DNA of 11,688 bases from a virus. Taxonomy: Duplodnaviria; Heunggongvirae; Uroviricota; Caudoviricetes. Every line of letters starts with the position of its first letter. Positions within the stretch are counted from its first letter, which is position 1. The translations under genes were made by a program, and so were the position numbers. Location of the stretch: IMG/VR virus record IMGVR_UViG_2571042053_000015. One strand, written 5' to 3'. Of the stretch, positions 1,574 to 7,494 are shown one piece after another. The notes below the pieces were generated by a model. That model ran no database searches, had not been told where the DNA came from, and was given only the letters and a program-made list of their open reading frames with translations.

Positions 1574-1603
1574 AAAGCCCGCGCTGGAGACGCACGGGCT
1601 TTT
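1574..1603 (+). terminator. Candidate rho-independent terminator-like hairpin flanked by an A-run and a T-run (potentially bidirectional)
   Basis: AAAAAGCCCG-CGCTGGAGACGCA-CGGGCTTTT: GC-rich stem AGCCCG/CGGGCT with a 13-nt loop, followed by TTTT. Sits about 320 bp after the int stop codon. Confidence 0.4.
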
Positions 1604-4526: not shown

Positions 4527-4552
4527 AGCCCGCATTTTAGCGGGCTTTCTTT
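4527..4552 (+). terminator. Rho-independent terminator after the lipoprotein gene
   Basis: AGCCCGC-ATTTTA-GCGGGCT stem-loop (7-bp GC-rich stem, 6-nt loop) followed by TTCTTT, 50 nt after the stop at 4476. Confidence 0.6.
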
Positions 4553-6518: not shown

Positions 6519-6666
6519 GAAAATCACTGTATAAAATCTCAGAGATAATCGACAGATTAGAGAGTATTATCCATATTGAGGCTATCCCGACGGGGAGAAA
6601 AGCGGCTACGCCTTGCCGCCTGCCTCCCCCATTATCTCAAGGCGGTGACGTGTAAGGCGAACGTGC

Positions 6667-7494
6667 ATGAGTGGTTTTGTTTTTCCTTTCGAGTTTCAAC
6701 CAGTGCCAGAGGCATTGGCAATCCTGAACGACATGGATATTGCTCCCTTTGAAATAACCGAAAAACACCTAGAAAGCTGGTGGGCGGAGGGGAAAATTCA
6801 ACTGTGCTTTAACTGGGGTAGATTCTGGAAAGCTGGCTTAGCCGACGAACTGGCAAAAACAGAAGGCTACGCAGAATTAGGGGCGAAAGAAAAGATCACT
6901 GCGCTCAATGCTGTATCCGCTTCCCCCGAGGCTAACATCAGTCTTGTCGTGCCATCTTACAGCGATTTAAGTTTTATCTGGCGCGGGCATAGCGACGATC
7001 CACTCCCCTGTATCGAGGCCAAACCCTACGGGCTTGATCAACCTTTTGTTATCAAACGCGTTCCTCACACCTGCGAGGACTATTGCGATTACGGTACGCA
7101 GCATTGGGAAAAACTTTACCATTCGCTGCACATTTCGAGTATGGTGCTGCCGCGTGCTGAAGCTGAAAAAATTTATTATCTCTGCAACCCTACAGCTATT
7201 CCAGGCATGGACGAAAAGACGGCATCTGCAGTATCTGCAGTATCTGCGAAAACGGTTAACTATCTGGCCACTGCTTTAAAAGCTTTTATTCACATCCATT
7301 ACGGGGCTGATGTGGCGGACAACCTGCGCAAACATCTTGAGGATCCCACCAGTGATATACGGAAAGACTTTGCGAATAAAGGGATCAAAGCGCCAGGTGG
7401 AAAAGCGCTGGCCAGCCATCTGAAAAATATTCTGATTGAAGTTTTACCCGCGCTCGACAACGTCGATGTGGAGAGTGACGCTGGTAATACATAA
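6667..7494 (+). CDS. Hypothetical protein (275 aa), orphan cargo gene immediately upstream of alpA
   Basis: ORF with AAGG 9 nt upstream of the ATG. No recognisable catalytic motif. Cys/His-rich patch (PHTCEDYCDYGTQHWEKLYHSLH). Contains an in-frame 9-bp tandem repeat. Confidence 0.7.
   Translation: MSGFVFPFEFQPVPEALAILNDMDIAPFEITEKHLESWWAEGKIQLCFNWGRFWKAGLADELAKTEGYAELGAKEKITALNAVSASPEANISLVVPSYSDLSFIWRGHSDDPLPCIEAKPYGLDQPFVIKRVPHTCEDYCDYGTQHWEKLYHSLHISSMVLPRAEAEKIYYLCNPTAIPGMDEKTASAVSAVSAKTVNYLATALKAFIHIHYGADVADNLRKHLEDPTSDIRKDFANKGIKAPGGKALASHLKNILIEVLPALDNVDVESDAGNT
7222..7248 (+). repeat. In-frame 9-bp tandem repeat, three imperfect copies (GCATCTGCA GTATCTGCA GTATCTGCG), encoding ASAVSAVSA
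   Basis: Direct inspection of the sequence inside the 6667-7494 ORF. Confidence 0.7.

Follow-up and report, generated by a model that had tools for sequence, protein, structure and literature searches.

A conserved terminator hairpin and a candidate small-RNA gene divergent from a mobile operon in P4-related satellite islands of Enterobacterales

The island and its integrase-side elements

The DNA analysed here, referred to as the window, is a viral stretch of 11,688 nucleotides (IMG/VR record IMGVR_UViG_2571042053_000015) that is identical to an island of about 12 kb located between yicC and dinD in Escherichia coli 2011C-4251. The same island is present in 17 of 5426 complete E. coli genomes, with 97−100% identity across the 500-bp region tested, and its carriers include EPEC E2348/69, in which it is named PP12. 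Because a P4-type tyrosine integrase gene (int, positions 1−1260, plus strand) occupies one end and a D5/primase-helicase gene encoding an alpha-like primase (9274−11688) the other, the island is, as judged by its gene content, a P4-related, satellite-like element. Within 4619−6460 on the minus strand, a 370-aa protein combining an HTH and an M78-peptidase part matches RmrA (PADLOC, E 1e-149), and a 239-aa protein encoded upstream of it matches RmrT (PADLOC, E 1e-52); the island therefore encodes a RosmerTA-type anti-phage system. The end of the RmrA-like gene is convergent with a plus-strand terminator at 4527−4546 (AGCCCGC-ATTTTA-GCGGGCT, then TTCTTT), which closes the operon beginning with a 183-aa gene. 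An Rfam int-alpA RNA motif (RF02996) is matched at 6575−6642 on the plus strand with 46.5 bits against a gathering score of 35.8, immediately upstream of an open reading frame at 6667−7494.

Downstream of int, a repeat cluster at 1277−1379 comprises six octamers that read T(A/G)TTCACC or TAATCACC; one is inverted. These octamers are identical to the annotated 'ori type 1 repeat' of the ori and crr of phage P4 (TGTTCACC/TATTCACC), so the int-proximal repeats are to be re-read as P4-type replication iterons, and this stretch 3′ of int is likely an ori/crr-like region bound by the alpha primase. Related islands carry other iterons at the equivalent place (CGGTTTCA, TGAACCAAC and TTCGCA). The same int-side module includes a perfect 12+12 palindrome (TCATCGTCCAGA/TCTGGACGATGA, 1453−1476 within 1451−1478) with a U-tract on the minus strand only, which is preserved in a Citrobacter locus (L006) through a symmetric change from CGTCC to CCTCC and could act as a back-up minus-strand terminator or as a protein site in the ori region. 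The first-pass annotation had considered the repeat cluster and the palindrome as possible parts of a noncoding RNA or of a structured int 3′ UTR ending at a hairpin further downstream, an interpretation that does not hold, since the repeats are P4 iterons and neither they nor the palindrome co-travel with that hairpin (1573−1603).

Conservation, linkage and strand of the hairpin

The hairpin is formed by two 12-nt arms at 1573−1584 and 1592−1603 (AAAAGCCCGCGC / GCACGGGCTTTT), which are 92% complementary on the plus strand and enclose a 7-nt loop; it starts 312 nt past the stop codon of int (1260), with 157 nt left between its end and the ATG at 1761. An A-run at 1566−1576 (AAAAAGAAAAA) lies ahead of it, and its 3′ side carries just four T at 1600−1603 (TTTTGGG), confirming that a hairpin with flanking A- and T-runs is situated where it had first been noticed. 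Read on the minus strand, positions 1573−1603 form the terminator hairpin AAAAGCCCGUGC-GUCUCCA-GCGCGGGCUUUU, with 12 pairs including one G.U and a G+C core at 1577−1599, and are followed by the U-tract UUUUUCUUUUU (1576−1566, minus strand), the first four U of which can pair with the AAAA at 1600−1603. Generic terminator-like patterns are common, with 20 sites in the window compared with 13.4 ± 3.4 in shuffled versions. The hairpin is the best-ranked of these sites in the window, was assigned by the scan to the minus strand (12 pairs, 7 of them G-C), and exceeds chance mainly by its conservation. Folding of its 56-nt context, one of the checks proposed at the outset, surpassed that of shuffled sequences on either strand, with a clear advantage for the minus strand (−24.6 kcal/mol, z −3.9, none of 200 shuffles as good) over the plus strand (−20.5 kcal/mol, z −2.5, 5 of 200 as good), the energy of the core stem being −16.0 kcal/mol versus −11.7.

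Conservation was assessed in relatives defined as homologues of the 183-aa protein, whose loci, drawn from genomes, assemblies, metagenomes and viral contigs, amount to 65 and comprise 46 distinct upstream regions. A hairpin of the form AAA(A)GCCC...GGGCTTTTT is found in every one of the 46, lying 137−182 nt 5′ of the start codon, and the loci that bear it come from E. coli, Salmonella, Citrobacter, Klebsiella, Serratia, Rahnella, Apirhabdus and metagenomes. The module to which it belongs thus extends over at least seven enterobacterial genera, with carriers such as EPEC E2348/69 (PP12) and many Klebsiella pneumoniae genomes. The stem core occurs in 18 versions, in which the GCCC/GGGC pairs on the outside are constant and four inner pairs vary on both sides (GC, AU, UA, GU), representing compensatory changes. 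In the alignment of window-type sequences, 96.3% of cells are paired, the covariation score is reached by none of 500 shuffles, and slid registers all collapse. By these comparative sequence criteria, the hairpin is a real, conserved intrinsic terminator. Its conservation, earlier named as a point to be checked, is borne out by the covarying stem pairs, and the term 'orphan' applied to it in the first-pass annotation is incorrect, since the hairpin invariably occurs together with the right-hand gene.

The sequence to the left of the hairpin varies among loci, consisting of int with iterons, of a primase gene with other iterons, of a PerC gene with a terminator, or of a minus-strand Q-antiterminator-like gene. 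Three E. coli genomes match the window precisely from the A-run of the hairpin onwards: hairpin, 157-nt spacer and 183-aa gene are preceded there by a cluster of primase, ProQ/FinO and PerC genes, and a canonical plus-strand terminator belonging to PerC stands directly ahead of the hairpin. Since the similarity begins at the A-run and PerC is provided with a terminator of its own, the hairpin travels with the right-hand sequence. At the locus of E. coli Z1323CEC0013 (L002, 5149−6032), the module likewise follows primase, ProQ/FinO-family and PerC-family genes, and the PerC terminator and the conserved hairpin stand in tandem, 9 nt apart. In the Klebsiella loci, the hairpin lies about 15 nt after the primase stop codon, with no iterons beside it. 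Linkage was also examined by a pattern scan of viral contigs, in which a loose first pass yielded at least 120 matches, mostly due to chance, that were then filtered for the combined motif-plus-hairpin signature. All nine signature matches without another explanation adjoin the 183-aa gene in divergent orientation; two more lie at the ends of unrelated coding genes, and one raw pattern match without a hairpin (L186) falls inside a coding sequence. As read from these sequence comparisons, the hairpin marks a module boundary, a property useful for annotating these islands.

Several asymmetries distinguish the two strands. At every locus, the leading T-run measures 5−8 on the minus strand and 3−4 on the plus strand. 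In the window, the plus-strand stem includes a C.A mismatch and runs into no more than TTTTGGG; its minus-strand form has G.U at that position and continues into TTTTTCTTTTT. An internal G.U pair specific to the minus strand, its plus-strand counterpart being A.C, occurs in seven distinct cores; these cases involve two stem positions and both orientations, and the reverse was encountered in no core. A d'Aubenton-Carafa-type d-score, calculated with ViennaRNA energies for 26 stem variants, is above zero for all 26 on the minus strand (mean +27.1) and for 8 on the plus strand (mean −3.6); in every variant the minus-strand value is the higher, and the window itself scores negative on its plus strand (four U, one A.C mismatch). 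Matches to terminator parts of Rfam models, all below threshold, are also stronger on the minus strand, as for the Thr_leader terminator (22.2 vs 11.8 bits). Such sequence-derived evidence favours the view that the hairpin works mainly as a minus-strand Rho-independent terminator.

As the G.U/A.C and T-run asymmetries are features at the level of RNA, they argue against both a pure DNA palindrome and a mainly plus-strand role. The former, a protein-binding palindrome or recombination junction at the module boundary with no RNA role, gains from the exact break in similarity of mosaic relatives at the left edge of the hairpin; it is nevertheless regarded as highly improbable, because a DNA palindrome would be symmetric and because the stem sequence is free to vary here while pairing is kept. 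The latter, in which the hairpin would chiefly terminate the upstream plus-strand gene (int, or primase elsewhere) or be truly bidirectional, the minus-strand features reflecting a mere A-tract, appears distinctly unlikely, despite the facts that no other terminator-like site exists on either strand between int and the next gene besides the palindrome at 1451−1478, that the Klebsiella hairpin is the sole terminator candidate behind the primase gene, and that the plus strand folds better than most shuffles and scores positively in eight variants. The plus-strand U-tract never exceeds four before a G, 18 of the 26 variants score below zero on that strand, and the A.C mismatch is tolerated in seven stem variants on the plus strand and in none on the minus. 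The hairpin is, moreover, retained in L002 even though PerC possesses a canonical terminator right before it, and the sequence to its left is interchangeable while that to its right is constant.

Bidirectional intrinsic terminators occur between convergent transcription units. The present hairpin resembles them in its A-tract/T-tract flanks and in its position between int on the plus strand and a predicted RNA on the minus strand, but it differs from them in its strong asymmetry, the plus side offering 3−4 U and often an A.C mismatch, and the signals on the two strands are not comparable. There is a weak case for its serving int as a weak plus-strand terminator, with some bidirectional activity possible.

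The region 1261−1620 had also been envisaged as a small RNA encoded on the plus strand or as an extended, structured 3′ UTR of int, perhaps an immunity RNA akin to P4 CI, in line with the position of all three elements (repeats, palindrome, hairpin) behind int on one strand and with the plus-strand T-run of four at the hairpin. This proposal is now held to be very improbable, considering that the repeats belong to the type 1 iterons of P4, DNA sites for an alpha-type primase, that positions 1261−1571 are replaced by unrelated sequence in other hairpin-bearing loci, and that the strand tests favour the minus strand and hence an RNA lying to the right of the hairpin. No Rfam family reached its gathering score at the hairpin region in scans of the whole window, a 161-nt region and one Klebsiella representative, and phage P4 has no equivalent terminator-like site between ori and sid; together with complementarity within the element at chance level (see the last section), these results speak against the suggested connection with the CI RNA. 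What stands of the proposed small-RNA 3′ end is that the hairpin is intrinsic-terminator-like, conserved and probably the end of a small RNA; the strand had to be revised, as the RNA would be encoded on the minus strand and run from about 1653 to about 1566.

The predicted minus-strand RNA and the divergent operon

The predicted small RNA occupies 1566−1653 on the minus strand and would measure about 82−88 nt, its 5′ end being derived from a promoter (start near 1653−1650) and its 3′ end from the terminator (within the U-tract, 1576−1566); the corresponding predictions in relatives range from 66 to 92 nt. The promoter is predicted to consist of the extended −10 element TGaTAACAT at 1658−1666 and the −35 element TTGCAA at 1680−1685, separated by a 16-nt spacer. 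On the minus strand, TGnTAnnAT precedes the stem by 36−61 nt in all lineages, and intergenic alignments of divergent lineages show TG, T1, A2, A5 and T6 of this block to be invariant between flanks that are unalignable, the pattern expected of a sigma-70 extended −10. Read on the plus strand, the block is a poor −35, and the −10 paired with it has no conserved final T. A −35 of TTGCAA or TTGAAA at 16 nt is present in the window-type subfamily and absent from the Klebsiella-type subfamily. As the loci are mutually related, the conservation of the promoter does not amount to fully independent observations. From this footprint, we infer that the promoter would fire and that the RNA would accumulate.

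The body of the RNA falls into two subfamilies, the window type and the Klebsiella/Rahnella type. Directly 5′ of the terminator, the window type carries the conserved motif ACAUGGUU (1614−1621, minus strand), the Klebsiella-type counterpart of which is UGCACAACGUGA, and these terminator-adjacent motifs are nearly invariant in lineages with an otherwise unalignable RNA body; ACAUGGUU could be a base-pairing seed or a DNA site. The chimeric locus L026 joins a window-type 5′ hairpin to the terminator-adjacent motif of the other subfamily. The 5′ hairpin of the window, a small and weakly supported stem-loop (AUUGAG-GUCCGAA-CUCAAU, 1635−1653, minus strand), has a Klebsiella-type equivalent that stays paired through a few changes, for example, from GAGGG/CCCUC to GAGGA/UCCUC, and the 5′ RNA bodies fold no better than shuffles (z −2.3 to +1.2). 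In the window-type lineage only, the predicted 5′ end at 1642−1656 (AUUGAGGUCCGA) repeats, in the same sense, the ribosome-binding region of the 183-aa gene at 1743−1757 (ACUGAGGUCUGA).

No conserved open reading frame or Shine-Dalgarno sequence runs through the predicted RNA on either strand in the relatives compared, and small open reading frames starting from a conserved ATG on either strand were rejected, as their length and frame differ between lineages. With a predicted promoter of its own close by and no protein-coding potential, the predicted RNA of about 85 nt, which is absent from Rfam and from the RefSeq annotation, has the attributes of a stand-alone small-RNA gene and is put forward as a candidate for one. 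Among the entries listed in the published Hfq RIL-seq data of EPEC E2348/69, which cover two growth conditions, there is none for NC_011601 40669xx−4067016 or for the E2348C_3894/3895 intergenic region. The RNA is likewise not described in the accessible portions of the literature on EPEC RIL-seq and on the Pas sRNA (a preprint), or in the main text on RIL-seq of hypervirulent Klebsiella.

The 183-aa gene (1761−2312, plus strand), the first of its operon, always stands beside the unit of hairpin and small RNA and is divergent from it. Its operon promoter is predicted at 1680−1707 on the plus strand (TTGCAA, 16 nt, TATTAT), with a start near 1714. A perfect palindrome, TTGCAATAATTGCAA (1680−1694), overlaps the −35 hexamers of both predicted divergent promoters and looks like a putative operator for a regulator. 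The −35 is shared by both promoters in the window, and the two have separate −35 elements in L007-type loci; the upstream regions of the relatives L007, L008 and L015 contain four GCAAT repeats about 11 bp apart. In the published EPEC RIL-seq tables (PMC8550237), 10 chimeras join Spot 42 to the 5′ UTR of E2348C_3895 at NC_011601 4067079−4067099, equivalent to 1716−1736 of the window, which fits the predicted plus-strand promoter at 1680−1707. E2348C_3895 is the EPEC 183-aa gene and Spot 42 a core sRNA, chimeras of which are also reported there with E2348C_3898 of the same island.

For the 183-aa protein itself, no match was obtained in Pfam, NCBIfam, PHROG or PADLOC, nor by tblastn against the phage collection; its AlphaFold model is mediocre (pLDDT 65.7), and Foldseek retrieved nothing from the PDB at E < 0.3. 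The label 'XRE family' attached by NCBI to some members was set aside, as it is supported by no model match. In relatives from Salmonella, Klebsiella, Serratia and metagenomes, the operon runs on into tail genes, namely tape-measure-like, Dit-like, Pam3_gp18, Apex and fibre genes (L009, 3910−6552; L011, 3761−6558; L015, 3095−5240; L016, 3464−4444), and these loci are therefore considered satellite-like islands with tail modules; in place of the tail genes, the window encodes two proteins without an assigned role, of 223 and 352 aa. The plus-strand leader of the 185-aa gene of the Klebsiella type contains a small hairpin before the Shine-Dalgarno sequence (L011, 2940−3000; also L020, L036, L038 and L055), which covaries (CGAC/GUCG versus CGGC/GCCG) and lies downstream of an invariant GTATAAT.

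It is considered probable, from sequence, that the minus-strand terminator ends a non-coding RNA of about 85 nt that is transcribed from an extended −10 promoter arranged back-to-back with the 183-aa operon. According to this explanation, a sigma-70 extended −10 promoter would start the RNA near 1653, divergently from the operon promoter, and polymerase on the minus strand would be stopped by the hairpin at the U-tract, at about 1566. The terminator, the small-RNA gene, the shared operator region and the operon would move as one module among P4-related satellite islands of Enterobacterales.

The terminator and promoter may be real and the RNA nonetheless a non-functional by-product of a divergent regulatory or competing promoter, with the hairpin acting only as an insulator of the iterons, int or primase against that transcription. 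The RNA body is indeed poorly conserved and without significant structure, searches for targets within the element and the divergent leader were empty, a second terminator-like palindrome, reading on the minus strand only, follows at 1451−1478, and the palindromic −35 TTGCAA shared by the window promoters suggests promoter competition. This by-product reading is judged unlikely, as the short motifs adjacent to the terminator are invariant although the remaining body is unalignable across lineages, and as the exchange in L026 concerned only the 3′ motif region, which would be expected if specificity resides there. The Klebsiella-type 5′ hairpin, furthermore, keeps its pairing through base changes, and the sharing of a −35 is not general, given the two separate elements of the L007-type loci.

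Possible role of the RNA and comparison with known systems

With regard to the role of a functional minus-strand RNA, base-pairing riboregulation through ACAUGGUU (window) or UGCACAACGUGA (Klebsiella type) is preferred. Within the element, exact complementarity to the predicted RNA yields four 9-mers in the window, where about four are expected by chance, and no conserved complementary site was found; the 9-mer over the start codon of the RmrA-like gene (5734−5726) was rejected, since E2348/69, with the same RNA, lacks it. Naive scanning of the entire window for duplexes returned long, meaningless pairings. The possibility of an antitoxin of the divergent type I kind, as in IstR, OrzO or OhsC, was discarded on duplexes with the leader of z +0.9 to −2.7 and no conserved site, and is also at odds with a neighbour of 183 aa, which is no small toxin; identity with OrzO-P was rejected at 18.5 bits against a gathering score of 60. 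Identity with the Leu, Thr or Trp leaders was rejected as well, the scores of 16−23 bits being driven by the terminator and the gathering scores amounting to 41−55. An amino-acid leader or attenuator was also ruled out, there being no leader ORF and the minus-strand downstream sequence consisting of iterons and the int 3′ end.

The architecture of the predicted unit can be compared with that of characterized RNAs. Its terminator agrees with those of enterobacterial sRNAs and attenuators in having a G+C-rich stem of 7−9 pairs extended by A:U pairs, a loop of 7−10 nt and then UUUUUCUUUUU, and a promoter about 60 nt upstream with a transcript of about 85 nt corresponds to the usual build of stand-alone enterobacterial sRNA genes. 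Unlike enterobacterial attenuators, the window RNA is accompanied by no leader peptide and no downstream co-oriented gene, and the hairpin is therefore not an attenuator. The oop RNA of phage lambda, about 77 nt long, has a dedicated promoter and a strong intrinsic terminator at its end, and is transcribed beside the replication region against the neighbouring genes; it overlaps the 3′ end of cII and is a cis-antisense RNA. The predicted RNA would share with oop its shortness, its own promoter and its intrinsic terminator, but it overlaps no annotated gene and is linked to the 183-aa operon rather than to iterons, as illustrated by the Klebsiella loci without adjacent iterons. The CI RNA of P4 arises by processing of the early-operon leader and base-pairs with sites within that transcript. 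The parallel with CI, itself a small regulatory RNA, is that of a P4-type satellite as carrier, the window possessing the P4-type int, type 1 iterons and alpha-like primase; the difference is that the predicted RNA has a promoter and terminator of its own and lies in the cargo region.

To our knowledge, small RNAs are almost unexplored in satellite-helper conflicts. The one studied case of a satellite sRNA that we found is SviR of the Vibrio cholerae satellite PLE, an sRNA conserved across the satellite family that is reported to act in trans on satellite and helper-phage transcripts (bioRxiv 10.1101/2022.04.08.487710). SviR, a satellite-encoded small RNA conserved family-wide, provides the best functional analogy; it differs in host, satellite family and helper, and the window RNA is a sequence prediction. 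By analogy with SviR, action of the riboregulator in trans, possibly on a helper-phage or host transcript, is the preferred reading. A more far-reaching version, offered tentatively and with considerable doubt, is that the RNA is a family-wide riboregulator of P4-related or primase-type satellites of Enterobacterales, tied to and co-regulated with the 183-aa operon, in which the exchangeable motif (of the ACAUGGUU or GCACAACGUGA type, swapped in L026) would be the specificity determinant that pairs with helper-phage or host transcripts. If true, such a riboregulator would be the enterobacterial counterpart of the PLE SviR, and a second case of this kind, widespread in tractable E. coli, would be directly testable.

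On its own, the hairpin is an ordinary intrinsic terminator, and its value lies in being a marker that exposes a candidate small-RNA gene strictly linked to the head of an uncharacterised three-gene operon, mobile between satellite cargo positions. As a secondary option for its role, the RNA might act in an antisense manner and block plus-strand transcription that reads through from int or primase and enters the operon. Polymerase stopped on the minus strand at the hairpin would also mean that transcription is kept out of the left side, which holds iterons and int here and primase elsewhere. At L016, a minus-strand gene at 1756−2345 encoding a Q-antiterminator-like protein (PF06530) is found about 100 nt beyond the conserved terminator, and in this lineage alone, transcription reading through the hairpin could feed it.
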